64,000 nucleotides of DNA. Origin: Bacteroidota bacterium (lineage in GTDB: Bacteria; Bacteroidota; Bacteroidia; 2-12-FULL-35-15). Below the pieces are notes generated by a model that saw only the letters and a program-made list of their open reading frames with translations, made no database searches and had not been told where the DNA came from. Positions within the stretch are counted from its first letter, which is position 1. Every line of letters starts with the position of its first letter. The DNA is taken from contig JAZKBF010000028.1 of assembly GCA_040388745.1 (NCBI GenBank), forward strand, positions 55,418 through 119,417, in the 5' to 3' direction. The position numbers were made by a program, and so were the translations under genes. Below are positions 1,773 through 57,500 of the stretch, piece after piece.

Positions 1773-1886
1773 GTAATTTAATTAGATAATTCGTCATTAC
1801 CGGTATTGTGTTATAATGCGAAGGTTTGATTTTTTGAAAGAACATTTTAAGTCTGAAAATTTATTTCTTCGAGGACGATTCTGTTT

Positions 1887-1996
1887 GCGTTAGGGATTGC
1901 AACGTAAATCCTTCCCTTCCGCTATTTGGCGGAAGGGAAGATTGAAGTGTAAAGCCCGCCCTTTTCCATTTGAGGAAAAGGAACGCCCAAATGAAT
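1887..1996 (+). repeat. copy 1 of a conserved two-hairpin element (candidate structured RNA / 3'UTR element)
   Basis: The blocks GCGTTAGGGATTGYAACGTAAATCC - hairpin - GATTGAAGTGTAAAGCCCGCC - hairpin - AACGCCCAAATGAAT are shared with 36418-36516. The hairpin stems differ in sequence but stay fully complementary (ttcccttccgc/gcggaagggaa and ccttttcc/ggaaaagg here). Confidence 0.5.
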
Positions 1997-23354: not shown

Positions 23355-23362
23355 TATATTTG
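23355..23362 (+). promoter_or_regulatory. candidate Bacteroidetes -7 promoter box (TAtaTTTG) upstream of the SMC-like module
   Basis: It matches the TAnnTTTG consensus of the Bacteroidetes sigma-A -7 element and lies ~30 nt upstream of ATG 23393. No clear -33 TTG is present. Confidence 0.3.
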
Positions 23363-23392
23363 GTTCTCAAATAATTTTGAAACTCAAAAAAG

Positions 23393-26080
23393 ATGCTAAC
23401 ACGAATTTCTCTTATTAACTCCAAAGGCTACGGTAAAGCCGAAATGAAACTCGACAATTGTGATTCAATGCAGTTAGTTGGTCCGAATAACATTGGAAAA
23501 AGTACATTGATCTATGCTTTGAACTTTTTATTTGTTGTTGACGGGCAAAAAATGTCCTTCAGTGGTCAGCGAAAAGGCGATAAAGAAACGATCCATCACT
23601 ACTTTCCAACTCATAACAAGAGTTTTTTAATATTCGAAATAAATAAATTGGGCTATTACTGTATCCTTGTAAAAAGGAACACAGATGGCGAATTAGAATA
23701 TTACAAAATTGACAGTGAATATGATGAAGAGTATTTCTTCGAAAATGAAGGTGCTCACCAACGTTTATTGAATTTTGATGAAGTAATTGGAAAACTTCTT
23801 GAAAAAGGTATTGTGCATAGTAAATTCGCTACTAAATCAGATGTGTTTAATTTGGTTTATCACCGCGGTACGAAGAACAATGCAGTAGTTTGGTTGGAAG
23901 ATACCGTAAAAGCAGATGGTTTGAGTAATAACTTTTCGAAGGTGTATCGTTATTTGATCAACTCCAAATTGATCACTAACAAAACCCTTAAAGAGTCATT
24001 GATCATTGCGGATAATCGTGAGAACGAAGGCTTGAACTTCTCTCAGAAAAACAAAAAAGATATTACCGATCTATTACGTATCAATGAAGAAATAAAAAGT
24101 ATTAAGTCGGTACGCACTGATTTCCTTGAGTTTCGTGAGTCGGTAAAAGTATATAATTCAAAAACCAGGATAGTAAGTGAGTTAATATCCGCATTCAACA
24201 GTTCATACACTGCTGCTATTCCTGAGTTAGAAATTTCTTCTATTGAAAGAGGTAGACACATTGCCGCTGTTCACAACGAGATCAATGAGATATTAAAGCC
24301 TAAGGAATTAAATTATGCTTCTTATATCGGTGAAAAAAATGCCGATGTAAAAAACAAAACTAATTTGTTGGCTGAAAAGCAAGCTGCTTTGAACGAAATT
24401 CAAAAGTATGAAAGCGTTGATTTTTTAAAAGAATCTTTACGTAATTTAGATAAGGACCGCAAGGATATCGAAACTCGTTTTACTACTATTGAGATTCAAA
24501 AATTATCAAGCAAGCAATTGGAAATGCGTATTGATAAGTTAAATTATCAAATTGCATCTCTCGAAAATCAGATCGATAACTATAATAATTTATTGATTCA
24601 CAAAATTTCGGATAACGAAGAAGTGAAACAATTATTGAATTCTGTGCTTTCTGAGCAGGTTACCAGCTTGCCAAGTAAACAGATCAAAAAGCCGATCAAA
24701 AAAATATCTGATAAGTTATTAGCAATTTTTGATGGCGAAATTGATATCACTAAAGGCATTACCTTGAAAGAATTCAAATCAGTTAAAGAACTGAAAGACG
24801 AATTGAAAGGCTTGCTGATAGAGAAAAAACAAACTGAAGAACTATTAAAAACAGTTGTTGACAAAGAAAAAATTGATTCGAAATTAAAAGTTATTTTAAA
24901 TGAGATTGAATTAATTAAAGAGAAAGTAAAACTTATTGAGAGCAAACCTGCTTTAGAAAAGCAGATCCGTTCAATAACAGATGATATCAAAACCCTTACG
25001 CTTGAAAAGAAAGAGCTCGAAGAGTTTTTGAGTTCATTGGTTAAAGAGATTTCTCAAAAACAAATAATGTATGACAAACTGCAGGAAGAAAAACGCGGTT
25101 TGGAAGGACGTGTTAGAGAATTGAAAGAACGTAAAATTGAAGTGGAAGCGATCAATTTAGCTCCTACGGATTACGAAACAAATGATAACCTTGATTATAT
25201 CTTTTCTAAAATTCAAATCCATCAAAAAGACAGGATTGAATTGAAAGTTAAGAAAGACGCTACTTTTGATAATTTGAAATATCGTTTACGCAATAGCAGT
25301 GCAGACATAGAACAATTCATAAGTTTTGTTGAAGATGAAATTGCTTGTTTAGCAGATAAAGAACGTAGTATTGATGGTTTATTATCCAGTATTTCTACAC
25401 AGTTTGCAAACCCTGCATACACCTTGTTAAAGCGTTATGAGGAGTTCAAACAATTTGTGTATACAAAATTCAACGAAAAACTTTCTCAAACACGTATCTC
25501 CAATATCGAATCAATGAAAATTGATCTGTTGGATAATGAGCGTATCATTGGAGAGTTGAAGAAGATCGCTTCAATCCAGGAGTTTAACGGACAAATGAGT
25601 TTTGAATTTGACCAATCAGAAAATTTAAAAGTTCTGAACGCTTATTTGGACAGCGGTAAAAGAGTAAGCTTTGATGAATTATTTAACATCGAATTACTTC
25701 TTCATATCAAAGGAACTGATAAGCGTGTGGATCTTGCAAACCAGGTAGAATCAGATGGTACCGATCGTATGATCCGTTTGGTAATGATCATGTCAATTAT
25801 CAACAGACTTGCAGTAACCGATGAGCAAAATAAAATTGCTTTATTTATTGATGAGGTTGCAACAATTGATAAACAAAACCGTCCGGAGATCGTGAAATTT
25901 TGTAAGGAGCATAATTTCCTTCCAATTTTTGCTGCACCTGATGCTGTTGAAGGATTTAATAAATATTATTTTATTTACCCGTCAAAAGGTAAGATCAATA
26001 TCAGCGAAAAACAAAATGCTGTTATTGTGGAAAGAAATGGAACAGTTCAACCTATTACAAAAATAACAAAAAGTAAATAA
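23393..26080 (+). CDS. MukB/MksB/JetC-type SMC-like condensin ATPase (895 aa)
   Basis: N-terminal Walker A GPNNIGKST (nt 23480-23506). A ~450-aa Glu/Lys/Leu-rich coiled-coil region follows. The C-terminal head carries ESDGTDRMIRLVMIMSI (compare MukB LSTGEAIGTGMSILVMVV) and LFIDEVATID...LPIFAAPD (compare MukB LFLDEAARLD...LIIAAPEN). Confidence 0.6.
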   Translation: MLTRISLINSKGYGKAEMKLDNCDSMQLVGPNNIGKSTLIYALNFLFVVDGQKMSFSGQRKGDKETIHHYFPTHNKSFLIFEINKLGYYCILVKRNTDGELEYYKIDSEYDEEYFFENEGAHQRLLNFDEVIGKLLEKGIVHSKFATKSDVFNLVYHRGTKNNAVVWLEDTVKADGLSNNFSKVYRYLINSKLITNKTLKESLIIADNRENEGLNFSQKNKKDITDLLRINEEIKSIKSVRTDFLEFRESVKVYNSKTRIVSELISAFNSSYTAAIPELEISSIERGRHIAAVHNEINEILKPKELNYASYIGEKNADVKNKTNLLAEKQAALNEIQKYESVDFLKESLRNLDKDRKDIETRFTTIEIQKLSSKQLEMRIDKLNYQIASLENQIDNYNNLLIHKISDNEEVKQLLNSVLSEQVTSLPSKQIKKPIKKISDKLLAIFDGEIDITKGITLKEFKSVKELKDELKGLLIEKKQTEELLKTVVDKEKIDSKLKVILNEIELIKEKVKLIESKPALEKQIRSITDDIKTLTLEKKELEEFLSSLVKEISQKQIMYDKLQEEKRGLEGRVRELKERKIEVEAINLAPTDYETNDNLDYIFSKIQIHQKDRIELKVKKDATFDNLKYRLRNSSADIEQFISFVEDEIACLADKERSIDGLLSSISTQFANPAYTLLKRYEEFKQFVYTKFNEKLSQTRISNIESMKIDLLDNERIIGELKKIASIQEFNGQMSFEFDQSENLKVLNAYLDSGKRVSFDELFNIELLLHIKGTDKRVDLANQVESDGTDRMIRLVMIMSIINRLAVTDEQNKIALFIDEVATIDKQNRPEIVKFCKEHNFLPIFAAPDAVEGFNKYYFIYPSKGKINISEKQNAVIVERNGTVQPITKITKSK

Positions 26081-26083
26081 GAG

Positions 26084-27277
26084 ATGAAGGCTGAACCAAG
26101 AACCATACTGCGCTTTTTACTGGAGTATTTTGATATTATCAACGAATTGTATGAAACACAATCGAAAGGTGGTGTAATTCCTTATGAAACATTGAATCTC
26201 ATTACATCTAAGCACAACACGGATATTAAGTCGCAGTTGATTGACTATAAAATATTAAGTTCGGTTAATGATAATTACGAAATACGAACTGTTTACTATA
26301 ACCTGATCGAGTTTATTTTAAGTGAGTTCAAACCATTATTGCCTGAAACAATTGAAAAATATCATGTTTCAATTTCTGAATTATTCCGTAAAATTAAGGA
26401 AAACATTAATGGGGATAAAGTAATCTTAAATCAGCGATTAACTGAATTGGCTAATGAAATAAGGACATTCTATGAAATGGTAGAAAAAAATACCATTAGC
26501 TTATTGAATGAAACCCGCGAATTAAAAGCCAACGTTAAGAAAATTGATTACAGAGAAAAGATCGTTAGAGCCTCCCGCTGGATTGACGAATATATTATTC
26601 CTTTGAATAAAATCCTGGATATCAATCATAGTGCCTCTATTGCCAATAAATTATACGACATTTCTGAATATTCAAATAAATACCGTTTGAATTGCGATGA
26701 TGAAAGTACACGTGTATTGTTTGAAAAGCTTTATTTTCAATTGATACAAGTGAATGATAATTTGTTGCGCCAGTCGAAAATATTAACGACTGAATTATTA
26801 CCACTTATCGAGCGTATCCGCACCGAATCGATCATTTTAACAGGTTGGATCACATTCTTAAAAAATCCTTATAAGCAAAAGGTTCCTCCAATGTTTGAAT
26901 CGAAAAGAACGAATATCTATTCAAACAATACCTTCTTTAATGCTTCGGAAATATTCGAACAATTTAAAAATGAAACGGATATTTATTTTGAAGATGAAAT
27001 AAATACAGAGGAAAAGTGGATCTTCGATAAAGATTTTTTTACCAACAAATTAAAATCTAATTTACCTGTAGAGGATTTTTTTAAGTGGTGTAACAAAACG
27101 TTGAAAGAAGAATATAAAAAAGTGGAGATTGAAAAATTCTTTGCCTTAACTACCCTTGCCTTTGATGAGGACATTGAACGGGACTTTGGTAAAACTCCTG
27201 AATTCGACAAAATAAAAATTAACGATTTAACATTAACAGTTCCCAAAATAACAATCAATAAACATGGAATTTCCTAA
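26084..27277 (+). CDS. hypothetical protein, putative kleisin-like (MukF/MksF/JetA-like) partner of the SMC-like ATPase
   Basis: 397 aa. The start lies 3 nt after the ATPase stop. The protein is mostly helical and its N-terminus (EPRTILRFLLEYFDIINELY..GVIPYETL) resembles a winged helix. The assignment comes from position and size only. Confidence 0.5.
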   Translation: MKAEPRTILRFLLEYFDIINELYETQSKGGVIPYETLNLITSKHNTDIKSQLIDYKILSSVNDNYEIRTVYYNLIEFILSEFKPLLPETIEKYHVSISELFRKIKENINGDKVILNQRLTELANEIRTFYEMVEKNTISLLNETRELKANVKKIDYREKIVRASRWIDEYIIPLNKILDINHSASIANKLYDISEYSNKYRLNCDDESTRVLFEKLYFQLIQVNDNLLRQSKILTTELLPLIERIRTESIILTGWITFLKNPYKQKVPPMFESKRTNIYSNNTFFNASEIFEQFKNETDIYFEDEINTEEKWIFDKDFFTNKLKSNLPVEDFFKWCNKTLKEEYKKVEIEKFFALTTLAFDEDIERDFGKTPEFDKIKINDLTLTVPKITINKHGIS

Positions 27278-27788
27278 TCACCATCGCCAAATTGTAGAAG
27301 ATCTAATGAGTGGTAAATTTATTTTACCTTCTGAACGTACGTTTGCAGTTTTAAGAGATAACGAACAATCGTACACCTATTTCTTTAAAGCATCATTCAA
27401 TTATGATCTAAAGATCACTCAGGATTTTGTTTACCTGGTTTCAGATGAATCAAATGAAATGTTATCACGTGATGTATGTATTTTTATTGCTCTTTTAAGC
27501 TATGAGCTTGACCGCGATGGAAAAAATTTTTTAGAAAGGATTCAATTCAGTGAGTTTGAGATCGAAGAAATTGAAAATTACTTTACCAACTCATCATATA
27601 TTGATTTGATCTTATCAAACAAACAATTGAAGGACGCAGACTCCCGTAAAAACTTTATCAATACACTAAACCGTAGAAATATCATCGAAAAAACTGCTGA
27701 TAGCCGTTTTGTGTTTACATCAGCACATAAATTCTTTATGGACTTTGCAGCGGATATTGTGAAGTTTGAAAATGTAGAAAAAGAGTAA
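27264..27788 (+). CDS. hypothetical acidic protein, MukE/MksE/JetB-like
   Basis: 174 aa, overlapping the upstream gene by 14 nt. The segment NEQSYTYFFKASFNYDLKITQDFVYLVS parallels MukE [28 protein letters not shown]. Confidence 0.5.
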   Translation: MEFPNHHRQIVEDLMSGKFILPSERTFAVLRDNEQSYTYFFKASFNYDLKITQDFVYLVSDESNEMLSRDVCIFIALLSYELDRDGKNFLERIQFSEFEIEEIENYFTNSSYIDLILSNKQLKDADSRKNFINTLNRRNIIEKTADSRFVFTSAHKFFMDFAADIVKFENVEKE

Positions 27789-27824
27789 TACCACACTCAT
27801 TTTCATCGTTATAACAAAGTATAG

Positions 27825-27860
27825 ACCTGACAGTTTTTTAAAACCTGTCAGGTCTTTTCT
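27825..27860 (+). terminator. rho-independent terminator of the three-gene module
   Basis: gacctgacag-ttttttaaaa-cctgtcaggtc hairpin followed by ttttct. Confidence 0.6.
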
Positions 27861-27922
27861 GTTTAGCTTTGTTGTAATATGATTGGATAAATATTTTTAT
27901 CTGAGTTTTAAATCCACCCATC

Positions 27923-27981
27923 TTTCTCGACTCCGCTCGAAATGACAACGCGCCTGGTCATTTCGAGCGGAGTCGAGAAAG
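27923..27981. repeat. palindromic repeat (GTCATTTCGAGC..GTCGAGAAAG family)
   Basis: ctttctcgactccgctcgaaatgac-aacgcgcctg-gtcatttcgagcggagtcgagaaag. Confidence 0.6.
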
Positions 27982-31249: not shown

Positions 31250-31334
31250 GGAGAAATGGCAGAGTGGTCTATTGCGGCAGTCTTGAAAACTGTTGAGGGT
31301 TATACCTCCTGGGGTTCGAATCCCTATTTCTCCG
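31250..31334 (+). tRNA. tRNA-Ser (anticodon UGA)
   Basis: Manual fold: acceptor GGAGAAA/TTTCTCC plus discriminator G, a 3-bp D stem (GCA/TGC), anticodon stem GCAGT/ACTGT with loop CTTGAAA (anticodon TGA), a long variable arm GAGGGTTATACCTCC, and T arm TGGGG-TTCGAAT-CCCTA. No CCA is encoded. Confidence 0.85.
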
Positions 31335-35410: not shown

Positions 35411-35584
35411 GATGTCATCCCGAGCGGAGCCGAGGGATCTTTTTATTGGTTGCATGAAACTTTTCGTGCGCTCAGTCATTTCGAGCCTGTCGAGAAACGT
35501 GCGCCAGCTTAAATGGGAAGTTCTAATAGTTCCAAAGCCCACGCGCGCTGTCATTTGGAGCGGAGTCGAGAAACATGCGTAAGC
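35411..35584. repeat. three tandem degenerate half-units of the GTCATTTCGAGC..GTCGAGAAA repeat family
   Basis: gtcatcccgagcggagccgagggatc, gtcatttcgagcctgtcgagaaacg and gtcatttggagcggagtcgagaaaca, spaced about 65-75 bp apart. Confidence 0.55.
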
Positions 35585-36317: not shown

Positions 36318-36417
36318 AATTAACCCAATCGATAAAACTATTAATTGCCACCGCATAATAAATAAAATTGTAGAAGACTTTAATAGAAGTATTCAATGCC
36401 CTTCCAAAGATAATGCC

Positions 36418-36516
36418 GCGTTAGGGATTGTAACGTAAATCCTTTTCTGTTTAGAAAAGATTGAAGTGTAAAGCCCGCCACTTTCTCTTTTAAGAAAGTG
36501 GAACGCCCAAATGAAT
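36418..36516 (+). repeat. copy 2 of the conserved two-hairpin element (candidate structured RNA)
   Basis: Same conserved flanks as 1887-1996. The hairpins here are ttttct/agaaaa and ccactttct/agaaagtgg, which are compensatory changes relative to copy 1. Confidence 0.5.
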
Positions 36517-45004: not shown

Positions 45005-45547
45005 TTTAATGTTCGATATTACATAATTGAGCATGAAAACAGCAAAATTTTTTAATAATTTAGAATTTACCACCTATTTATTTACAAAAAAAACATTCCC
45101 TCTACCAGTTTTTTTTAAATTATTGCTAATAATCGTGATTTTTTAACTAGATATCGAAATAGTCGCCTGCTTTTTATAGATTTTTGATTCGTTAGGAATT
45201 TTGGAGTTAAATTAAAATCTTTTCGATGTAAAGTTCTTATTATCAGTTATTTGTATTGATGAATTGCTCTTTTTCCCTTCCTGTTAATTTTTCGACAAAC
45301 TCCTATTTTATCTATTTTAACGGAAGAAAAAGCACCCTGAAATATTCTTGAAATTAAAATTGTTGATAAAATTGTTAACAAATAATAAACATTTAAGTGT
45401 TTGATTTTCATGTATTTGAGTTTGATTTGCCCTGTTTTTTCATAAAAAAGCAATGTGTGTGTATAACTTTATTTCCGACTTTTTCGTATATTTCAGAAAT
45501 AAATCCGGGGATTTAATATTAGTTATAGGAAATTTTGTAATTGTAAT

Positions 45548-48500
45548 ATGGGAAATATTTATTCTTCCATGATTAATATTAAAAAAGTCATTGCAACATT
45601 AAAAATGATGCTTATAGCATCGCTTTTAGTTGTATCTGATGGTTTTAATAATTTTTCGTTTGCGCAGAGTCCTCAAATCTATACATCATCTAATACATTT
45701 ACTGTTCCTGCTTGTGTTTCTTCCATAACTATTGAAGTTGTTGGTGGAGGCGGTTCAGGTGGAGGTAATGGAGGCGGTGGTGGCGGTGGAGGAGGATATT
45801 CCAGTGGAACTTTTGCGGTTACTGCAGGTGCTAATCTGGCTGTAACAGTTGGAGGGGCGGGCACTACAACCAGTGTAGCTGCACTTATTTCAGCTACAGG
45901 CGGAGTTAATGGCGGAAGTGTTTCCAATCCCACAATTGGTGGTGGTGGTGCAGGTGGCGTAGGTTCAGGAGGCTCGGTCAATCGTACAGGAGGAACAGGC
46001 GGGGGAGGATATTATACGTATTTCGGAGGTGGTGGTGCAGGGGCTGCAGGTTCAGCCGGAGGAGGTAGTAATGGTGGTGATGTTATTGCATGGACAGGTA
46101 GTAATTGTTTGCAGCCAGGTGGTTCTGCCGGAGCCGGTGGCGGTGCACCGGGTGGAAACGGTGGTAAAGGTGCAGGTTTTACTGAAGGTACTTGTACTAC
46201 AAGCAATCCGGCTGCTGTTGGTGTGAACTATGGCGGTGGCGGTGGCGGTGGAAATGGTAATGGAGGTGCTGCTCAAGCTGGTGCCGGAGGTTATTGTAAA
46301 ATTTCATGGACTGCAAATCCTGCAATTGCAACTAATACGATAAGTGCGGCTCAAACTATTTGTTCTGGAGTTGTTCCGGCTGCATTGGCAGGATCTACTC
46401 CAACAGGAGGTAGTGGAGCTTATACTTATTTATGGGAATCTTCAACAACAAGTGCAGGAGCTGGTTTTGCCGCTGCATCAGGTACTAACACCAATATTGG
46501 CTATATTCCTCCTGCTTTAACGGCAACCACATGGTATAGAAGAACTGTGTATTCTGGCGGATGTACCGATGTTTCTGCAGCCATTGAAAAAACTGTTAAT
46601 CCAATACCTACAGTAACTACCGCAGCAACTGCTTCTACATGTAGTGGAACCGGCCCAAATATTGCTTTAACAGCAAGTGTGGCAAGTACTTTTACCTGGA
46701 CCATAGGAACAAATCCCGGTGCTATTACCGGAGCAAGTGCCAGTTCGGGATCTCCCATTAATCAAACACTTACTAATCCAAGTAATTCATCATCAAATGC
46801 CATACAATATCTTGTTACTCCTACTTCAACAGGAGGTTCATGTGTTGGTTCAGCTTATACAATAACTGTAACAGTAAACCCCAAACCCGCAATTTCTAAT
46901 GCTTCAACTAAGACGATATGTACTTCCACAGGTACAGCGATCACATTGGCTGCCAACGGTGTAAGTAGCACCTATGCCTGGACGTTGGGAGCAATAACAG
47001 GTGGTATCACGGGAGCAAGCGCCACGAGTGGATCTACTATTAGCCAAACGCTCGTCAATCCAAGTAATACAACTGACGGTACGGTGCCATACCTTGTTAC
47101 TCCCACTTCAACAACAGGTTCATGTGTGGGTGTTGCTTATACAATAACGGTAACTGTTACTCACGCTCCTACAATGACCAATGTATCCACATCTACGATA
47201 TGTAGTGGAACAGCATCCGGGATAACATTAACTGCAAATGAAGCAAGTACTTTTGCCTGGACAATAGGAACCAACGCAGGTGGCATCACAGGTGCCAGTG
47301 CCGGCTCTGGTTCCAATATGAGTCAAACGCTTACCAATCCAAGCAATTCAGCTGTCAATACCATACAATATATTGTTACACCTACTTCAACAGCAGGTGC
47401 TTTATGTTCTGGGCCTTCTTATACTATGACTGTAACGGTTAATCCTAAGCCGGCTGTAAACAATGCTGCAACTGGTTCAACTTGTAGTGGAACAGGTCCG
47501 AATTTTGCATTAACAGCCACTGCTGCCAGTACTTTCACTTGGACAGTTGGGACAATAACAGGTGCGATAACCGGAGCCAGTAATAGTTCGGGAACCCCTA
47601 TTAATCAAACGCTTACAAATCCAAGTAATGCAACAGATGGTACCGTACAATATCTCATAACCCCCACTTCAACAACGGGTACATGTGTAGGGGCTGTTTT
47701 CTCATTGGTTGAAACAGTTAACCCAACACCGGCAGTTACTAGTGCAGCCACAAAAACGATATGTACAGCCACTGGTACAGCCATAACATTAGCCGCAAGT
47801 GCACCAAGTAATTTTGCCTGGACATTAGGCGCGATAACAGGTGGAATTACCGGGGCAAGCGCCACTAATGGAGCTGCTATTAGTCAAACGCTCACTAATC
47901 CAAGTAATACCGGGGATGGAACCGTGCCATATCTTGTTACCCCAACTTCTACAACCGGTTCCTGTGTTGGTAATGCTTCAACAATAACTGTAACAGTAAC
48001 TCATGCACCAACAATAACCAATGCTGCAGCAGCTTCAATATGTAGCGGAACCGCAACAGGCATTACTTTAACTGCAAATGAAGCAAGTACATTTGCATGG
48101 ACCATAGGGTCAAATCCTGGCGGCATTACTGGTGCAAGTGCCGGCTCAGGCTCTAATATGAGCCAAACGCTTACTAATCCAAGCAATGCAACAGCAAACA
48201 CCATACAATATATTGTTACCCCTACTTCAACTGCAGGCGCTTTATGTGCTGGTCCCGCTTTTACTATAACGGTAACAGTGAATCCAAAACCGGTAGTTAC
48301 AACTGCAGCAACTGATCCTACTTGTAATGGAACCGGACCGAATATCTCATTAACAGCGACTGCGCCAAGTTCTTTTGCCTGGACGATTGGAACGATAACT
48401 GGTGCCATTACTGGAGCCAGTAACAGTTCAGGCGCTACTATTAATCAAACACTTACTAATCCAAGCACAACAACGGCAGGTACGGTGCAGTATCTGGTTA

Positions 48501-51500
48501 CACCCACTTCAACAACAGGTTCATGTGTTGGAGTTGCATATACAATCACGGTAACAGTAAATCCGGAACCAATTGCTATATTTACCGGAGGCGCTAACCA
48601 AACAGTATGCTCTGGAGTTGCACTTCCAACTCCAATTGCGCTTGGTACAAGTAACAGCATTGCAGGAACAACATTTGCCTGGACAAGAGATAATACAACA
48701 AATGTTACTGGTACTACAAGTGGTTCAGGAAATATCTCAGCTCTGGTATTGACCAACATAACCACTTCGCCACAAACGGTAACTTTTACAATAACACCAA
48801 CGGGCCCCACTCCAACCTTTTGTATAGGTGCAACAATAACCACAACTGTTGTGGTAAATCCAATCCCGGTATTAAACAGTAGTTTGACAATACCTGCAAT
48901 TTGTAATGGAAACACATTGTCTTATGGTGCCACCAGTGCAACTTCAGGTGCAACATTTGCATGGACTCGTGCTGCGGTTACTAATATTACACCGGCAACA
49001 TCATCCGGAACAGGCAATGTAAGTGAAGCATTAACGAATGGATCTGGTTCTCCCGGAGCACCCATCAATGTTACTTATGTGTATACAACTACAGCAAATG
49101 GTTGCAGTAATGCAGGACAAAACGTTGTGGCAACAGTAAATGTACTTCCAATTGGAACCATCACTAACAGTGCACAAACCATTTGTTCAGGAGCAACATT
49201 TTCAACAATGGTTTTAGGTACCAGTAATGGTGTTACTTCCACTACTTTTACCTGGACCAGAAATAATGGTGCTATAACAGGTATTGGAGCAAGTGGGTCG
49301 GGTGGAAGTATTGGAGGAGTTGCATTAACAAATACAACTGGTTCAGACCAAACAATAACATTTACAATAACACCATCCTGTTCCGGTGCCAATTTAACTG
49401 CTACAATTTTAGTTCGAGCAAGTATTGTATTAAATAGCACATTATCTCCACCTGCAATTTGCAGTGGCGCTACTTTTGCTTATACACCAACAAGCGCAAC
49501 CGGTGGCGCTACTTTCGCATGGACCCGTCCTGTCGTATCAGACATATCATCACCGGGAGGGGCTTCTGGCGCTGGCAGTGTAAGCCAGGTGTTAAATAAT
49601 AGCAGCACTAATAGCATTAATGTTACTTATGTATACACAACTACAAATCCAGGAACAGGCTGTAGTAATGCTGGAGAGAATGTAGTTGTAGCGGTTGAAA
49701 AAGCACCTGTGGCAGCAGGAACAATAAGCGGTACCCCTTTAATATGCCAGGCACAAACATACTCTTATTCGGTGCCGGCAATACAAAATGCCACCACTTA
49801 TACCTGGAGTTATTCCGGAACCGGAGTTACTATAAATGGATCAACATCAAACATAACGGTTTCTTTTTCAACTTCAGCTACATCAGGCAATCTAACGGTA
49901 AGAGGAACCAATAGTTGTGGAAATGGAACGATATCTGCCAACTATGCCATTGGGTTAAATGCTAATGCCACAATTGCTTTGACATCAACTGCAGGAACTA
50001 ATTTCCAAACCGTTTGTGTAAATATTCCGATAGCGGATATTACTTATTTGGTTGGAGGTGGCGGAACAGGTGCAGGAGTTACTGCATTGCCTACCGGGAT
50101 CTCAAGTTCTTTTAGCGGCAGCACGTTGACAATCAGTGGTACTCCTACTGTGGTTGGGACTTTCCCTTATACAATAACTACAACAGGAACCTGTATTCAA
50201 ACCAGTGCAGCCGGAAGCATTATAATTGCTCCTCTTCCAACATTAAACAGTTCATTGGCCCCTCCGGCAGTGTGTAGTAATTCAACTTTCAATTACACAC
50301 CAACAAGTCCGGTTTCAGGTGCAACATTCACCTGGACAAGAGCTGCGGTAGCAGGGATAAGTAATGGAGCAAACAGTGGTACTGGTAATCCTGGTGAAAT
50401 TCTTTACAATACTACTTTAACAGCAGTAAATGTTACCTATGTTTATACTGTAGTTGCTAATGGTTGTTCAAGTGCTTCAATCTCCAATGTTGTAGTTTCA
50501 GTAAAGCCACAGGCTTTATTAAGTAGTTCACTTACACCACCGGCTATTTGCAGTGGAATAGCATTTACGTATACCCCTGCAAGCGCAACAGCTGGTTCAT
50601 CTTTTGCATGGGCAAGAGCCGCAACAGGAGGGATCAGCCAGGCAGCCAACAGTGGCACAGGCGATCCGAACGAAATATTAACCAATACAACAGCTACTAC
50701 TGTTAATGTTACTTATGTTTATACGATCACTGCTACGGGGTGTAGTTATAATCAAAATGTTGTTGTACCGGTAACACCAACCCCAACATTAAGCAGTTCA
50801 TTAAATCCTCCTGCAGCTTGCAGTGGAGTTGCAGTGAACTATACACCAACCAGTGCAACTCCGGGGGCATCGTTCACCTGGACAAGAGCTGTAGTAGCCG
50901 GTATAAGCAATGGTGCTGGAAGCGGTACTGCCAACCCTTTCGAAACACTTACAAATACAACAACTTTAGCGGTTAACGTAACTTATATTTATACAGTAAC
51001 AGCCAATAGTTGCACCAATCTGACCACTTTCAGTGTAATTGTTCCTATAAATCCAAGGCCAACCTTAAACACCACCTTAACTCCTCCCGCAATATGTAGT
51101 GGTACCGTTTTTAGTTATGTCCCCGGCAGTGCAGTGGCAGGTTCAACATTTGCTTGGGCAAGAGCAGCAATTGGTGGTATAAGCAATCCAGCGGCTAATA
51201 ATACAGGTAATCCATCAGAAACGCTTACCAACACTTCAACAGCTCCGATCAATGTTACATACGTTTATACAACTGCCGCCAACGGATGCAGCTTTGATCA
51301 AAGTGTGGTTGTAACGGTAAATCCGAAACCAACGCTAAACAGTAGTTTGGCACCTACAGTATGTAGTGGCTACACCTTTAACTATGTGCCGACAAGTGCA
51401 ACAGCTGGTGCTTCATTTACATGGACAAGAGCGGTAGTAGTAGGAATCAGCAATGGAGCAGGAAGCGGATCAGGTTCTCCTTCAGAGATCCTTACCAATA

Positions 51501-54500
51501 CTACAACAGCATCTGTAAGTGCTACTTACATTTATACTGTATCGGCTAATAGTTGCGTAAATGCAACTACTTTTAGCGTGATCGTTAATGTATTTCCAAG
51601 GCCAACCTTAAGCAGTACATTAACGCCCGGAGCAATATGCAGCAATGTCATTTTCAATTACACACCCGCAAGCGCCATCGGAGGGGCAACATTTGCCTGG
51701 GCAAGAGCCGCAATACCTGGTATCAGTAATGCCGCTAACAATGGTGTAAATAATCCTGCCGAAACCCTTATCAATACAACAGCTGCTCCGGTAAATGTTA
51801 CATATATTTATACAACATCAGCGAATGGTTGCAGTTTTGATCAAAACGTGATCGTAACGATAAACCCTAATCCTACTTTAAACAGTAGTTTAACACCAAC
51901 GGTTTGTAGTGGGGCTGCTTTTAATTATACCCCTACAAGTGCAACAGCGGGTGCATCATTTGCATGGACAAGGGCAGTAGTAGCCAATATCAGCAATGGA
52001 GCAGGTAGTGGTACAGGTGCTCCATTTGAAACACTTTATAATACTACAACAGTTTCCGTTAATGTAACCTACATTTATACAGTTGCTGCCAATGCATGTA
52101 CAAATGCTACAACTTTTAGTGTAGTTGCTACTGTTTATCCTGCGCCTACATTAAGCAGCACATTAACACCTGCTGCAATTTGCAGTAATACTATTTTCAA
52201 TTATCCCCCTTCAAGTGCAATAGGCGGGGCTACTTTTTCATGGTCAAGAGTTGCGGTGGGAGGTATCAGCAATGCAGCAAACAGCGGCATCAACAATCCG
52301 AACGAAACCCTGATCAATACTTCAACGGTTCCTGTAAATGTTGTTTACGTCTACACAACTACTGCCAATGGTTGCAATAATAATCAAAATGTAATTGTAG
52401 CAGTAAATCCAAAGCCAGTACTAAACAGTAGTCTAACGCCAACAGTATGCAGTGGAGCATCTTTCAATTACACCCCCACAAGTGCAACACCGGGAACAAC
52501 ATTCACATGGACAAGAGCCGCAGTAGCAGGTATCAGTAATGGCGCGAACAGTGGTTCAGGTACTCCATTTGAAACTCTTTTTAATACCACAGGTGCTTCA
52601 GTGGATGTTACTTATATTTATACACTTTCGGCTAATGGTTGTACCAATGCAACAACATTTAGTGTGGTTGCCACCGTTTACTCAAATCCAACATTAAGCA
52701 GTACAACAACACCTCCTGCAATTTGTAGTGCTACTCTTTTTTCTTACGTGCCATCAAGTTCAACTGGTGGAGCAACATTCTCGTGGTCAAGAGCTACAGT
52801 GCCGGGTATCAGCAATGCATCAAGTAGTGGCACAAACAATCCGAATGAAACACTTACCAATACATCAACGGCTCCTATCAATGTTACCTATATTTATACG
52901 ACTTCTGCCAATGGTTGCAATAATAATCAAAACGTAATTGCAACTGTTAATCCAACACCGGCATTGAACAGTAACCTGACACCATCAGTATGTAGCAATT
53001 CTACCTTTAATTATACACCAACAAGTGCTACTGCAGGTGCCACATTTACATGGACAAGAGCTGCCGTAGGTGGCATTAGTAATGGAGCGGGTAGCGGCAG
53101 CGGCTCTCCATTCGAAACACTTATCAATACAACAGCAGCTCCTGTAACAACCACTTATATTTTTACTGTAACCGCTAATCTTTGTACAAATGCAGCAACA
53201 TTCAGTGTAGTAGTTACGGTAAATCCAAGGCCTGCATTAAGCAGTGCGCTTACTCCTCCGGCAATTTGTAGTGGTACTGTTTTTAGTTACGCACCAACAA
53301 GTGCAACGGCAGGGGCTACATTCCCCTGGAACAGAGCAGCAGTAGGAGGTATCAGCAATGCAGCTAATAACGGTACAGGTAATCCGAGCGAAACCCTTAA
53401 TAATACAACAACAGCTCCTGTTAATGTTACTTATATTTATTCAACTACTGCCAATGGTTGCTTTTTTGATCAAAGTGTAGTGGTAACGGTAAATCCAAGA
53501 CCTGCATTAAACAGTAGTCTTACACCATCAGTTTGCAGCAATTCTGCTTTTAATTATACCCCAACAAGTGCAACCGCTGGTGCTACATTTACATGGACAA
53601 GAGCAACAGTTGCCGGTATCAGCAATGGAGTGGGAAGTGGGGCTGGTTCTCCTTTCGAAACCCTTATTAATACAACCGCTAATCCTGTAAATGTTACTTA
53701 TATTTTTACAGTAACCGCTAATTTATGTACAAATGCAACCACTTTCAGTGTTGTTGCAACTGTAAATCCAAGACCAACACTAAGCAGTGGTTTAACTCCT
53801 CCTGCAATTTGCAGTGGTACTGCTTTTAATTATTCTCCAACAAGTGCAACAGCAGGTGCAACATTTCCATGGGCAAGAGCGGCCGTTGGAGGTATCAGCA
53901 ATGCAGCGAATAATGGCACTGGTGATCCGGGCGAAACATTAATTAATACTACAACAACTCCGATCAATGTTACTTATGTTTATTCAACAACTGCAAACGG
54001 TTGCTTTTTTGACCAGAATGTTGTAGTAATTGTTAATCCAACACCGGCATTGAACAGTAACCTGGCGGTAGCGGTATGTAGCCACATCACCACTTTTAAT
54101 TATACACCAACAAGTGCCACACCGGGCGCAACATTTACCTGGACAAGAGCGGTAGCTGCAAATATCAGTAATGGCGCGGGAAGTGGTTCAGGCTCTCCGT
54201 CTGAAGTTCTTTTCAATATCACAGCTGCCCCGGTAACTTGTACTTATATTTTTACCGTTACCGCTAATACATGTGTAAATCCAACTACTTTCAGTGTAGT
54301 GGTTACAGTGAATCCAAGGCCATTGTTAAGTAGTTCATTAACACCTCCTGCAATTTGTAGCGGTACAGCTTTCAGTTACATACCGGCAAGTGCAACCACC
54401 GGTTCAACCTTCCCATGGTTTCGTGCTGCCGTTCCGGGTATCAGCAATCCTGCCACCAGTGGTACAGGTAATCCGAGCGAAGTATTAAGCAATACCACCA

Positions 54501-57500
54501 CCACTCCGATAAATGTTACATATACATATGGAGTAACAGCTAATGGTTGCCAGGTTAATAACAATGTAATTGTAACCGTATATCCGCCTCCAACATTAAA
54601 CAGTACATTAGCTCCTGGTGGATATTGCTCTAATTCCCAACAAGGCTATGTTGTTAGTTACACACCTTCAAGTGCAACACCCGGAGCAACGTATACCTGG
54701 ACAAGAGCCGTGGTAGCTGGTGTGAGTGCAGGCGCAGGCAGCGGATCTGGTAATATATATGAAGGACTAAATAATACAACATCAGCTAATATTAATGTTA
54801 CCTATGTTTATACAGTGACAGCTAATGGTTGTACAAACCCAACAACCTATAATGTAGTTATTGTATTATATCCTAGTCCGGTATTAAGCACCAGTACGGC
54901 TCCACCTGCAATTTGTAGCGGAACTGCTTTCAATTATGTGCCATCAAGTTCAGTAGCAGGTACAACATTCACCTGGTGGCGCGGAACTACTACTGGTATA
55001 AGTCAGCCAGCGAGCAGTGGTTCTGGTAATCCCATCGAAGTGCTTACCAATTTATCAACCTTTCCTGTTGTGGTTGTTTATTTGTTTAGAGGAATAGCAA
55101 ATGGATGCCGTTATGATGTAAATGTGAACCTTACAGTTAATCCGGAACCATCATTAAGCAGTACAATTACGCCTCCGGCAATATGTAACAATACAGCTTT
55201 CAGTTATATACCAACAAGTGATATAGTAGGTGCAACATTTGCATGGACAAGAGCGGCAGTAGCAGGTATCAGTAATCCGGCCGGAAGTGGTACGGGTAAT
55301 CCAAATCAAATACTTATCAATACTACCACGGCTCCTGTAAATGTTACCTATGTTTACACGATATCCGCAAATGCCTGTACAAGTTTAACAACATCGAGTG
55401 TAGTGGTATCCGTAAATCCAAACCCCGGATTTACAAGTAGTTTAACCCCTCCTGCAATTTGCAGTGGTACTGCATTTAATTACTCTCCTACAAGTGGAAC
55501 AGCCGGGGCATTGTTTACCTGGTCCAGAGCGGCAGTGGTGGGTATAAGTAATATGGCTGCCAGTAGTATCGGTAATCCCAATGAAGTACTTATAAATACA
55601 ACAGCAGCTCCTGTAAATGCTACTTATACCTATAGTATATCAGCAAATGGTTGTACAAATCCTACAACATTTAATGTAATAGTAAGTGTAAATCCAAACC
55701 CAACATTAACGAGTACACTAACTCCCCCGATAATTTGTAGTGATTCGGTTTTTAATTATGTACCAACAAGTGCAGTAACAGGCGCAACGTTTAGTTGGGT
55801 AAGACAAGCTGTGGTGGGTATAAGCAATGCACCCGGCAGTGGAACATTCAATCCGAATGAAACTCTTGTAAATACCACAACCGGTACTATAAATGTTACC
55901 TACGTTTATACAGTATCAGCAAATGGTTGCGCTAATCCAACTACTTACAATGTTGTGGTTGCTGTAAAAATTTGTGCTTGTAATCATTCATTAAGCAGCA
56001 GTTTAACGCCTCCAGCTATTTGTAGTAGCACTCCATTTAATTACATACCAACAAGCTCCTCACCGGGAGCTTCATTTACCTGGACAAGAGCCGTAGTAGC
56101 CGGTATCACCAACGCGGCAGGAACGGGTTCCGGTAATCCTAACGAAACGCTTATCAATACTACTGTTGCTCCTATTAATGTTACCTATATTTATTCGGTT
56201 ACTATGATCTGTACAAATCCAATAACGTATAGTGTAGTAGTTAGGGTAAACCCAAGTCCAACATTAACAAGTACATTAACGCCTCCCGCTATATGTAGCG
56301 GAATAGCCTTCAGCTATACTCCATTAAGTGGAACAACAGGCTCAACATTTCCATGGACAAGAGCGGTGATATCCGGGCTTAGCAATCCATTTGGAAGTGG
56401 TACCGGCAATCCATCGGAAGTACTTACCAATACATCATCATCACCTATAAATGTCACTTATGTTTACAATGTAACTGCCAATGGTTGCAGTAACGGTCAA
56501 AATGTAGTTGTAACGGTAAATCCAAAACCAACATTAAGCAGCACATTAGCACCTCCAGCGGTTTGTAGTGGTGTTGTTTTCAATTATTCCCCAACCAGTT
56601 CAACTGGCGGGGTCTTATTTTCCTGGACAAGAGCAGCGGTTGCGGGTATCAGCAATGTAGCCGCAAGTGGTACGGGTAATCCTGCTGAAACACTTATCAA
56701 TACAACTGCAGCTCCTAAAAATGTAACGTACATTTATACATTATCAGGCAGTGGATGTGTGAATGCAACAACCTATAGTGTAGTTGTTGCAGTAAATCAG
56801 GAACCAACCTTAAGCAGTACACTATCACCGCCTGCAATTTGCAGTGGCTCCACTTTCTACTATACACCAACAAGTGCAACAAGTGGTGCTACTTTTACAT
56901 GGACACGAGCAGCTGTAGTAGGCATAAGCAATCCTGCCACTTTCGGTTCAGCCGACCCGATTGAAACGCTTATTAATACCACCTCTGTTCCTAAAAATGT
57001 TACTTATGTTTATACGTTATCTGCTTTCGGCTGTGTAAACTCAACAACTTACAGTGTGGTTGTTGTTGTAAATCCAACACCTTTATTAAGCAGTGTTACA
57101 TTACCTCCGGCAATATGTACAGGCACTGTTTTTAGCTATGTACCAACAAGTGCAACAGTTGGCGCCTCATTTGCATGGGACAGAGCTGCGGTTATAGGGA
57201 TAAGTAATGTTGCCGCCACAGGTACAGCTAATCCGTCCGAAACACTTGTTAATACTACTTCAGGTCCTGTAAATGTTACTTATGTTTATACCTTAACGGC
57301 AAACGCTTGTACAAATGCAACAACATATAACGTAGTTGTAACTGTAAAGCCAACACCGATCCTGAGCAGCCTTTTAACTCCTCCGGCAATTTGCAGCGGT
57401 GCAACTTTTAATTATACACCTACAAGTGCAACAGCTGGTACCACTTTTTCATGGGCAAGAGCAGTGGTAGCAGGCATCAGCAATGTGGCTGCCAGCGGAT

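Follow-up and report, generated by a model that had tools for sequence, protein, structure and literature searches.

A compact three-gene MksBEF-type operon of Bacteroidota, very probably descended from a nuclease-bearing, Wadjet-like ancestor

The window, meaning the whole 64-kb stretch of DNA analyzed here, belongs to an uncultured Bacteroidota genome and contains three genes, B, F, and E, whose features are collected in Table 1. According to the ORF list, they are co-directional and follow one another in the order B-F-E. The TAA stop codon of B is followed by GAG and then by the ATG of F, a spacing of 3 nt, whereas F and E share 14 nt (ATGGAATTTCCTAA). Two putative -7 boxes, TATATTTG at 23355-23362 and TAATTTTG at 23372-23379, precede the start codon of B by 14-31 nt and would serve as the promoter; they were judged as Bacteroidetes-type TAnnTTTG boxes, a sigma-70 consensus scan being uninformative for the host phylum. 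The terminator-like hairpin (27823-27855) starts 35 nt past the E stop codon and has the arms AGACCTGACAG...CTGTCAGGTCT, followed by TTTTCTGTTT in the U-rich context UUUUCUGUUU; its folding energy is -21.4 kcal/mol (z = -6.1), and 0 of 200 shuffles fold as well. Beyond it lies a palindrome of 30+30 nt (27922-27981). Related copies of this palindrome occur at 35414-35433 and 35550-35569. Both flanks of the trio consist of housekeeping genes, with acyltransferase, GpsA, Maf, MtaB-like radical-SAM enzyme, and thioesterase genes on one side and a GT2 glycosyltransferase gene on the other, and no defence or mobile-element genes were seen there. The first-pass annotation had described this tight coupling on the + strand, a promoter-like box, a strong terminator, a repeat element, and a site between housekeeping genes, all of which were borne out.

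Table 1. Features of the B-F-E operon, in window coordinates
Feature	Position	Strand	Evidence
Putative promoter: two TAnnTTTG boxes, Bacteroidetes-type -7	23355..23379	+	Direct sequence reading
Gene B: 895-aa SMC-like ATPase, MukB/MksB/JetC type	23393..26080	+	ORF, AF2 model, Foldseek, hhalign
Walker A GPNNIGKST of B, aa 30-38	23480..23506	+	Sequence; invariant in 26-sequence family alignment
C-terminal head motifs of B	25748..25870	+	Sequence; 26-sequence family alignment
Gene F: 397-aa putative kleisin, MukF/MksF/JetA-like	26084..27277	+	ORF, model architecture, fold matches
Gene E: 174-aa MksE-family subunit, KITE-type	27264..27788	+	Pfam PF21980
Intrinsic-terminator-like hairpin plus U-rich tract	27823..27868	+	RNA fold, inverted repeat

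Protein B is, as judged from its predicted structure, an SMC-like ATPase of the MukB/MksB/JetC type. The AF2 model (pLDDT 71) combines split heads with a small hinge and two long helical arms, arranged as an N-terminal head (~aa 1-215), an arm (218-399), the hinge (~400-468), a second arm (469-697), and a C-terminal head (705-860). In a Foldseek search against the PDB, the top four matches were all MukB (E 2.7e-15 to 2e-13), followed by Rad50 (fifth, 9e-11), JetC (4e-10), and Smc5/6 (1e-8); Pfam returned weak P-loop matches only. The C-terminal head carries a signature-like ESDGTD (aa 786-791), a Walker B plus D-loop ALFIDEVATID (aa 816-826), and PIFAAPD (aa 844-850), and S787, D788, G789, T790, F818, I819, D820, and E821 are invariant in the family alignment. 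The hinge contains a conserved FDGEIDI (aa 446-452), and B has no CxxC zinc hook because residues 400-468 include no cysteine.

The two partners were assigned with unequal firmness. By its full-length profile match, protein E is an MksE-family subunit: it aligns with Pfam MksE (PF21980) at E 7.5e-21 and 75.6 bits over profile positions 2-161 of 163. The same domain is present in all E homologues among the matches listed, some of which NCBI names 'condensin complex protein MksE'. Protein F is modeled with an N-terminal winged helix (aa 8-81), a helical bundle (87-260), a disordered linker (261-315), and a C-terminal helix/beta domain (316-387). This architecture is MukF-like, and MukF is the best specific fold match, with weak scores; the C-terminal winged helix that defines kleisin-cap binding is modeled at low confidence. 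The initial readings thus fared differently: the quoted head motifs LFIDEVATID and PIFAAPD of B, its MukB-like class, and the MukE-like class of the third protein held, while for the middle protein as kleisin the architecture agrees and the fold scores remain weak.

We then considered how widely the arrangement is shared. The same-strand order B-F-E is retained in every long-enough locus from ~80 species-level Bacteroidota genomes, most of which also keep the 14-nt F/E overlap, a conservation of arrangement far beyond chance. Among the ORF clusters around the family loci, B, F, and E alone are universal. The family is present in at least 272 species genomes, and across ~35 species the identities of B, F, and E follow that of the adjoining mtaB, with mtaB-B-F-E synteny retained down to 55% B identity. 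Within the window's nuclease-less clade, the trio has been inherited vertically beside housekeeping genes, which contradicts the annotation's view that the module is unusual for the lineage. Estimates of dN/dS are 0.02-0.05 for all three genes, with dS near saturation, and point to strong purifying selection. Together with full-length genes and the complete set of ATPase motifs, they suggest that the trio of this clade is still functional. No copy of F was found on plasmids or viruses.

No JetD-like or G gene adjoins the trio or occurs elsewhere in the 64-kb window; the nuclease-free B-F-E order noticed at first is real, and it is conserved across family loci. A fourth gene, new here, appears in deeper relatives: a 260-aa gene G between B and F, giving the order B-G-F-E, with sizes such as B(886)-G(264)-F(403)-E(174). 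This is a cyclic permutation of the canonical jetA-B-C-D (F-E-B-G in our lettering). All 30 metagenomic G relatives adjoin B and/or F in B-G-F-E order within contig reach, and across these and eight genomic G-bearing loci G was never found to stand alone. Among 14 G proteins, 10 matched Pfam JetD_C (best E 2.3e-5), weakly, with scores close to the Pfam threshold or under it, and 11 matched DUF7281; a sequence search returned no solved structure. G has an invariant CxxENxxxF glutamate, DxDxxGL, and LEQ, including Toprim-type E and DxD motifs, and is probably a Toprim/JetD_C-like protein and the plasmid-cleaving effector. The four-gene form moves between genomes by horizontal transfer and is sited among restriction-type genes: its F proteins from Chryseobacterium, Aequorivita, Daejeonia, and a Chitinophagales MAG share 92-96% identity, and the neighbors of the operon include Vsr, HNH, a methylase fragment, RhuM, and IS1595. 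Some G-bearing loci occupy ordinary chromosomal settings, so context alone cannot separate defence from housekeeping.

The direction of change is given by a B+F+E tree (neighbor-joining, midpoint-rooted, without support values), in which G-bearing loci are basal or paraphyletic. A locus with G (L078) and one without (L080) are syntenic on both sides, with nucleotide identities of 88-89%, and the exact difference between them is the G gene; no remnant of G was found in the three-gene loci. G was lost at least twice, once by clean deletion between syntenic loci. These comparisons show, at the level of gene content and sequence, an ancestral family operon of four genes, B-G-F-E, that is predicted to have been nuclease-bearing and Wadjet-like, and place the window trio as its predicted nuclease-less derivative within a large clade without G. 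The locus very probably encodes an MksBEF-type complex descended from a Wadjet-like ancestor.

The ancestral form has the same subunit set as Wadjet/JetABCD (MksBEFG, EptABCD): besides the MukB-like ATPase it includes a kleisin-like protein, a subunit of the MksE/JetB type, and a Toprim JetD_C-like protein. One of the best fold matches of B is JetC, and G of the relatives matches Pfam JetD_C. The window operon differs in lacking JetD/MksG, and the family's order is B-(G)-F-E rather than jetA-B-C-D. The subunits are also all smaller, with B at ~880-900, F at ~400, E at ~175, and G at ~260 aa, compared with approximately 1100 (JetC), 480, 230, and 400 aa in Wadjet. PADLOC Wadjet models detected none of the window's B, F, and E; on the four-gene form they missed F and G and gave marginal JetC/JetB matches for B and E. 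NCBIfam and PDB sequence searches missed the subunits of the window as well. Plasmid pSR76 of Salinibacter ruber (NZ_CP030360.1) carries the closest canonical-order relative found, an uncharacterized and equally compact operon that encodes four proteins of 410, 216, 879, and 231 aa in the order F-E-B-G (WP_118841687/86, WP_162891597, WP_118841684). With hhalign, B matched its 879-aa ATPase (prob 98.6, E 6e-16) and G its counterpart (prob 98.2, E 3e-14), while F (prob 57, E 1e-4) and gene E (E 0.023) were marginal; the fourth gene of Persicobacter pPP6 also matched G (prob 95). Unlike the window trio, the pSR76 operon is plasmid-borne, adjoins DUF262 and thermonuclease genes, and retains its nuclease. 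The compact four-gene Wadjet-like operon behind the family is previously unclassified.

Two nuclease-less complexes offer functional precedents. The MksBEF proteins of Pseudomonas aeruginosa are larger than those of the window, and their order is F-E-B rather than B-F-E. That system, which co-exists with SMC-ScpAB, likewise lacks MksG. Its three subunits form a chromosomally encoded MukBEF-like complex that has been implicated in chromosome organization and segregation (PMC7485682, PMC11894783). Wadjet-group members without the nuclease are known, among them MukBEF, which has turned into a housekeeping condensin (PMC7617805). In structure, B is matched best by E. coli MukB, and F has MukF as its best specific match, but MukB has 1486 aa against 895, the order is mukF-E-B, and by hhalign B aligns with MukB over the N-terminal head only (prob 24%), while the F and E families have no match to MukF and MukE.

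From the families to which the subunits are assigned, two copies of B would join at the small hinge, with ATP bound between their MukB-like heads. As the kleisin, F would bridge the head and neck of B and form a dimer through the N-terminal winged helix; the KITE subunit E would attach to the linker of F, and the complex would entrap DNA and extrude loops. After deletion of G from the ancestral operon in several lineages, including the window's large clade, the remaining trio would act as a condensin-like chromosome organizer and, without the nuclease, would not restrict plasmids by cleavage. Our best reading of the window trio is a complex of the MksBEF type that functions without a nuclease, probably in a condensin-like way; such a role, judged by analogy with P. 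aeruginosa MksBEF and E. coli MukBEF, stands at about even or a shade better.

The first-pass annotation had left defence and condensin open. The relatives show the ancestor to have been a four-gene Wadjet-like operon. The trio could continue to defend against plasmids or other mobile DNA by entrapping small circular DNA as Wadjet does, and then silencing or mis-segregating the plasmid or recruiting a nuclease whose gene lies at another site in the genome, a reading that we regard as possible but doubtful. It would fit the Wadjet gene content of the ancestor, the mobility of the four-gene form, and the equal sizes of B, F, and E in both forms, with no added domains, and a G-like or other nuclease could sit beyond the 64 kb seen. 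Against it, G occurs only inside B-G-F-E operons in the 30 metagenomic and eight genomic loci found to carry it, the trio's flanks contain no defence or mobile-element genes, and long vertical inheritance at the mtaB divergence rate is atypical of defence systems. Known Wadjet immunity, moreover, depends on JetD/MksG cleavage (PMC10123090, PMC7617805).

A quite improbable alternative is that this Bacteroidia lineage relies on the trio as its main or only chromosome condensin, in place of SMC-ScpAB, which MukBEF has likewise replaced in enterobacteria. The vertical inheritance of the trio, its synteny with housekeeping genes, and the strong constraint on it would suit such a role, but many Bacteroidota genomes carry an SMC annotation, and the family is small, with 111 clusters at the 50% identity level in a set of 1.84 billion representatives. 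Its known spread amounts to at least those 272 species, with no named Bacteroides or Muribaculum member seen in the homologue searches. The first-pass annotation had presumed that Bacteroidetes normally use SMC-ScpAB, which would make the trio an accessory set. In favor of the sole-condensin reading, two papers report finding no homologue of known condensins in two Bacteroidales species and urge a search for divergent ones (PMC10197239, PMC11894783); the trio's subunits are divergent enough to evade the sequence searches above.

It is very unlikely that B is a DNA-repair ATPase (Rad50/SbcC, RecN, or RecF-like) with unrelated accessory proteins, despite the Rad50 fold match, a weak SbcC-like P-loop match in PHROGs, and homologues named 'SbcCD ATPase subunit': MukB is the best match, MukB and JetC outrank Rad50 on our reading of the fold search, the zinc hook is missing, no SbcD/Mre11 partner gene occurs in the window or among the conserved flanking ORFs, the conserved partner is a Pfam MksE protein, and relatives carry a JetD_C-like gene. 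That the trio is merely a decaying remnant left by effector loss is hardly credible, for although the nuclease gene is gone, all three reading frames are unbroken in dozens of species, dN/dS is low, catalytic motifs are invariant, and the trio-retaining clade spans divergence to ~72% protein identity.

As a nuclease-less derivative of a Wadjet-like operon, the window trio may be a naturally occurring example of defence machinery taken over for chromosome maintenance.

A mechanical ORF list reproduced the three tightly coupled + strand genes that the first-pass annotation had proposed as an accessory MukBEF/MksBEF-like module (see table), including the 3-nt gap between B, the SMC-like ATPase gene, and F, the putative kleisin gene, and the 14-nt overlap between F and E, the MksE-family gene. 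The boundaries proposed there also stood. Two Bacteroidetes-type TAnnTTTG boxes, promoter-like in sequence, lie 14-31 nt upstream of B, and 35 nt past E a hairpin (-21.4 kcal/mol, z -6.1) is followed by a U-rich tract (UUUUCUGUUU). Just downstream of this terminator is a perfect-centred 30+30-nt palindrome (CTTTCTCGACTCCGCTCGAAATGAC...GTCATTTCGAGCGGAGTCGAGAAAG) that, with related single arms 7.5 kb away, looks like a REP-like dispersed element. GC content around the operon is uniform (~0.32). Housekeeping genes flank the operon, as first described: upstream, those for an acyltransferase, GpsA, Maf, an MtaB-like radical-SAM enzyme, and a thioesterase; downstream, those for a GT2 glycosyltransferase, a GWxTD protein, and a T9SS-sorted protein. 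The reported absence of a JetD/MksG nuclease likewise held, as the operon contains no fourth gene and tblastn returned no match in the 64-kb window.

Coordinates of features in the window and in related loci from other genomes or plasmids (numbered L0xx and L1xx)
Feature	Sequence	Position	Strand	Details
B	window	23393-26080	+	895 aa
F	window	26084-27277	+	397 aa
E	window	27264-27788	+	174 aa
Palindrome	window	27922-27981		
Palindrome-related single arm	window	35414-35433		
Palindrome-related single arm	window	35550-35569		
Stop-free frame	window	45503-64000	+	>6,166 aa
Rfam Flavo-1 RNA motif	window	1882-1965	+	56.6 bits
Rfam Flavo-1 RNA motif	window	36410-36484	+	52.9 bits
tRNA	window	31250-31334	+	
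Salinibacter ruber pSR76 operon	L126	4983-10814		F-E-B-G order; 410-216-879-231 aa
Persicobacter psychrovividus pPP6 operon	L127	5263-11547		F-E-B-G order; 396-179-1233-285 aa
B and F parted by insertion	L018	3495-7910		4.5-kb insertion
Four-gene form, defence-island-like surroundings	L090	1-6127		
Four-gene form, defence-island-like surroundings	L093	5435-6509		
Four-gene form, defence-island-like surroundings	L094	3715-6553		
Four-gene form, defence-island-like surroundings	L094	12055-12645		
Four-gene form, defence-island-like surroundings	L095	108-998		

Elsewhere in the window, the two Flavo-1 copies and the tRNA are consistent with a Bacteroidota origin. The single stop-free frame runs past the window end, begins with a signal-peptide-like N-terminus, and coincides with a rise in GC from ~0.33 to ~0.43; it probably encodes a giant secreted repeat or adhesin protein.

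The AlphaFold2 model of B (pLDDT 71) forms an SMC-like hairpin in which N-terminal and C-terminal head halves are accompanied by two arms (helical arm 218-399, return arm 469-697) and a small hinge (~400-468), itself modeled at low confidence and containing a conserved FDGEIDI motif. When this model was searched against the PDB with Foldseek, the four best-scoring chains were all MukB (E 2.7e-15 to 2e-13), followed by Rad50 (9e-11), JetC (from 4e-10), and Smc5/6 (from 1e-8), in agreement with the split-headed MukB/MksB/JetC-type ATPase proposed at the outset. The family shows no variation in Walker A, the signature-like SDGT, or Walker B (FIDE). By sequence, B returned nothing above sub-threshold P-loop matches in Pfam, NCBIfam, and PADLOC, and no match to the sequences of solved structures, even with a 26-sequence profile. 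The suspected MukE-like nature of the third protein was borne out by Pfam MksE (PF21980), which covers E at nearly full length (E 7.5e-21, 75.6 bits, cut-off 27); this label is already present in public databases.

Kleisins of the MukF/MksF/JetA type comprise an N-terminal winged-helix dimerisation domain, a neck-binding bundle, a flexible linker, and a cap-binding C-terminal winged helix. In the model of F, residues 8-81 form a winged helix, 87-260 a long helical bundle, and 261-315 a disordered linker, with a small helix/beta domain at the C-terminus. This MukF-like layout is in keeping with the earlier assignment of the middle protein as the kleisin, which stays putative: the model is mediocre (pLDDT 58.6 overall, ~80 for residues 10-250), and F matched nothing in any sequence library. 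A profile of F retrieved 111 clusters from 1.84 billion representative proteins, all of ~390-420 aa and none tied to a named family, and Pfam scans of the most distant relatives gave no link to DUF3375 or MukF. Overall, the subunit identities are strong for B and E and moderate for F. PDB sequence searches of B, F, E, and G (a ~260-aa gene of relatives, described below), by single sequence and by profile, gave coiled-coil noise or nothing; NCBIfam, PADLOC, and PHROGs assigned no specific family to the three window proteins. Some of the homologues numbered P0171-P0239 (F) and P0312 (B) carry Pfam PF28010.1 / PF28007.1, which are newer than the Pfam copy scanned, and curated families for the F and B subunits may already exist as PF28010 / PF28007.

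On its ATPase and KITE subunits, the locus fits the MukBEF-like (Mks/Wadjet) group. That group is ordered kleisin-KITE-ATPase(-nuclease), whereas the window and all related loci read ATPase-kleisin-KITE, the B-F-E order recognized in the first reading. Wadjet proper carries JetD/MksG in its operon; the window operon lacks it, whereas sister loci encode G. The Wadjet PADLOC models (JetA, JetB, JetC) matched none of the three proteins. MukBEF proper was set aside, as Pfam Muk matches were absent, hhalign detected no similarity between the F and E families and E. coli MukF and MukE, and B aligned to MukB with a probability of 24% over the N-terminal head alone. For Rad50/SbcC-Mre11/SbcD, residues 400-468 of B contain no cysteine and hence no CxxC zinc hook, and no locus has an SbcD-like neighbor; with MukB ranking above Rad50 in Foldseek, the missing hook argues against a RecN/SbcC/RecF-type ATPase, an alternative raised by the first-pass annotation. 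Canonical SMC-ScpAB can be dismissed, given no more than a sub-threshold P-loop match to SMC_N (13.8 bits, cut-off 40), no SMC hinge domain, partners that are neither ScpA nor ScpB in Pfam, and no bacterial Smc among the top structural matches of B.

An unexpected fourth gene came to light in related loci. One cluster of F relatives includes the cultured isolates Chryseobacterium sp. RR2-3-20, Aequorivita lutea, and Daejeonia sp. YH14, whose operon is B(886)-G(264)-F(403)-E(174). The ~260-aa G insert occurs in 5 of 80 species loci, and a metagenome scan with the G alignment recovered 30 further copies, all adjoining B and/or F and arranged B-G-F-E as far as the contigs reach; these systems include ones whose B is just 28% identical to that of the window. 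G bears an invariant CxxENxxxF glutamate, HxYG, DxDxxGL, and a terminal LEQ. Pfam JetD_C was matched by 10 of 14 members (best E 2.3e-5) and DUF7281 by 11 of 14 (best E 1.2e-6), and NCBIfam returned nothing. The G profile also aligned to the fourth genes of the pSR76 (prob 98.2, E 3e-14) and pPP6 (prob 95) plasmid operons. On these motifs, domain matches, and alignments, G is by sequence a compact Toprim/JetD-type protein.

Both plasmid operons follow the canonical order, are unannotated, and have an ATPase and/or fourth gene homologous to the B and G families; around the pSR76 operon lie DUF262 and thermonuclease genes, and around the pPP6 operon HigB and AAA ATPases. Homology between B and the pSR76 ATPase is clear (prob 98.6, E 6e-16 across 725 columns), and the first gene of that operon aligns weakly to F (prob 57, E 1e-4). 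The B/F/E/G family thus belongs to the Wadjet group as a compact branch. Its B-G-F-E operon is F-E-B-G (jetABCD) cyclically permuted, with the F-E and B-G pairs still adjacent. The family escapes present detection: PADLOC makes no call, and even a four-gene relative gave marginal matches alone (JetB2 3.8e-4, JetC at or above 0.006). Most members of this compact family would also be missed under the size limits set in a recent Wadjet survey (MksB over 890 aa, MksF 400-1200 aa; PMC7617805). Nuclease-less members of the Wadjet group are already recognized (PMC7617805). In the literature searched, which left out the MksBEF subfamilies of Petrushenko et al. 2011, we found no description of the permuted operon, the compact G nuclease, recurrent G loss, or fixation of the three-gene form.

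In a neighbor-joining tree of concatenated B, F, and E, midpoint-rooted and without support values, G-bearing loci are basal and paraphyletic, and the window falls within a large G-less clade. G is present in all of the outgroup-like plasmid systems and in all of the most divergent metagenomic ones, pointing in the same direction as the tree, namely that G is ancestral and was later lost. Direct evidence for its deletion comes from a single pair: L078 carries G and L080 does not, both flanks are syntenic at 88-89% nucleotide identity, and the difference is exactly the G gene. Searches of the window and of the three-gene loci turned up neither G nor a G remnant. The tree, this pair, and the lack of remnants together imply at least two losses of G, and the tree puts their probable number at about five; B, F, and E were intact and constrained after each.

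Close homologues of the trio all come from uncultured Bacteroidota MAGs, and a one-genome-per-species scan found F relatives in at least 272 species genomes, a lower bound set by the two peptide patterns used. Among the 80 fetched loci, every one that is long enough has B-F-E on a single strand, most with the same 14-nt F/E overlap. Clustering of the flanking ORFs returned B, F, and E as the sole universal members, followed by upstream mtaB in 34 loci, and the mtaB-B-F-E synteny is still present at 55% B identity. Across ~35 species, the identity of B, F, and E (72-100%) parallels that of mtaB (79-99%), and pairwise dN/dS is 0.02-0.05 for each of the three genes, with dS near saturation. As the order is conserved, identity tracks mtaB, and dN/dS is low, the trio in the window's clade is a functional, vertically inherited operon. 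The earlier impression that the module is unusual for its lineage was therefore mistaken. A decaying remnant is discounted by intact B, F, and E, the same dN/dS values, and invariant ATPase motifs.

Two oddities emerged among these loci. In one species (L018), the insertion between B and F contains two large secreted-protein genes (318 and 1149 aa), and B, F, and E remain intact. Five operon-bearing MAGs (L020, L043, L068, L077, and L083) are titled Chitinophaga pinensis, Competibacteraceae, Bifidobacteriaceae, or Bifidobacterium; their B, F, and E, and in some loci the adjacent genes, closely match other Bacteroidota MAGs, and the records look mislabelled or mis-binned.

SMC complexes of the Wadjet group provide plasmid-killing immunity when paired with the nuclease and organize chromosomes without it, as in MukBEF and Pseudomonas MksBEF. 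To our knowledge, no route from plasmid-killing complex to chromosome organizer, or the reverse, is known. The isolate four-gene form behaves as a mobile defence system. Across different families and orders, represented by Chryseobacterium, Aequorivita, Daejeonia, and a Chitinophagales MAG, its F is 92-96% identical, indicating recent horizontal transfer. Its neighbors include Vsr, an HNH_2 endonuclease, a DNA-methylase fragment, AAA_14/DUF4143, RhuM, an IS1595 transposase, a 1348-aa AAA_11/AAA_12 helicase, and an AAA ATPase. Other four-gene loci lie in ordinary contexts. In contrast, the window-type three-gene form is flanked by housekeeping genes, and no F copy of this form was found in 72,556 plasmids (tblastn) or IMG/VR viral contigs.

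By analogy with MukBEF and Wadjet, B would dimerise at its hinge, F would dimerise and connect one head's cap to the other's neck, and E would bind the F linker; ATP binding would then open a gate, leading to DNA entrapment and loop extrusion (PMC7617805). In the four-gene ancestor, stalling on small circular DNA may have activated G for cleavage, and without G the complex could still load onto and fold DNA. The most economical reading, to which we give an even chance or slightly better, is that the trio would play a condensin-like role on the chromosome, similar to Pseudomonas MksBEF and MukBEF. The main rival has the trio acting against mobile DNA, either independently of a nuclease or through one supplied in trans; with island-like surroundings for its four-gene kin on one side and its own housekeeping flanks on the other, we regard this as unlikely, if worth entertaining. 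A bolder form of the condensin-like reading is more doubtful still: an SMC complex for plasmid defence would have shed its nuclease and afterwards been domesticated as the lineage's main, perhaps only, chromosome condensin. As for a co-occurring SMC-ScpAB, which the first-pass annotation presumed, no SMC-sized Walker A ORF beyond the family itself was found in ~1.3 Mb of loci extending 10 kb to either side of the matches.

The subunits are unusually small (about 895, 400, 175, and 260 aa), a size that may lend itself to structural and single-molecule studies. The family also presents a graded living series, from a mobile four-gene form through chromosomal four-gene forms and a recent clean G deletion to a long-fixed three-gene clade, which makes the defence-to-condensin transition directly testable. 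The window comes from a lineage of uncultured Bacteroidia of freshwater and groundwater; among the homologues listed, none was a named Bacteroides or Muribaculum. Two published studies report finding no homologue of known condensins in two Bacteroidales species, and divergent systems of the B-F-E kind bear on the puzzle that some Bacteroidota lack a recognizable one (PMC10197239; PMC11894783). If the trio is indeed a domesticated main condensin, it would repeat the origin of MukBEF independently and far more recently, with the intermediates still alive, and divergent, search-escaping MksBEF-like complexes would fill part of the 'missing condensin' gap in Bacteroidota.
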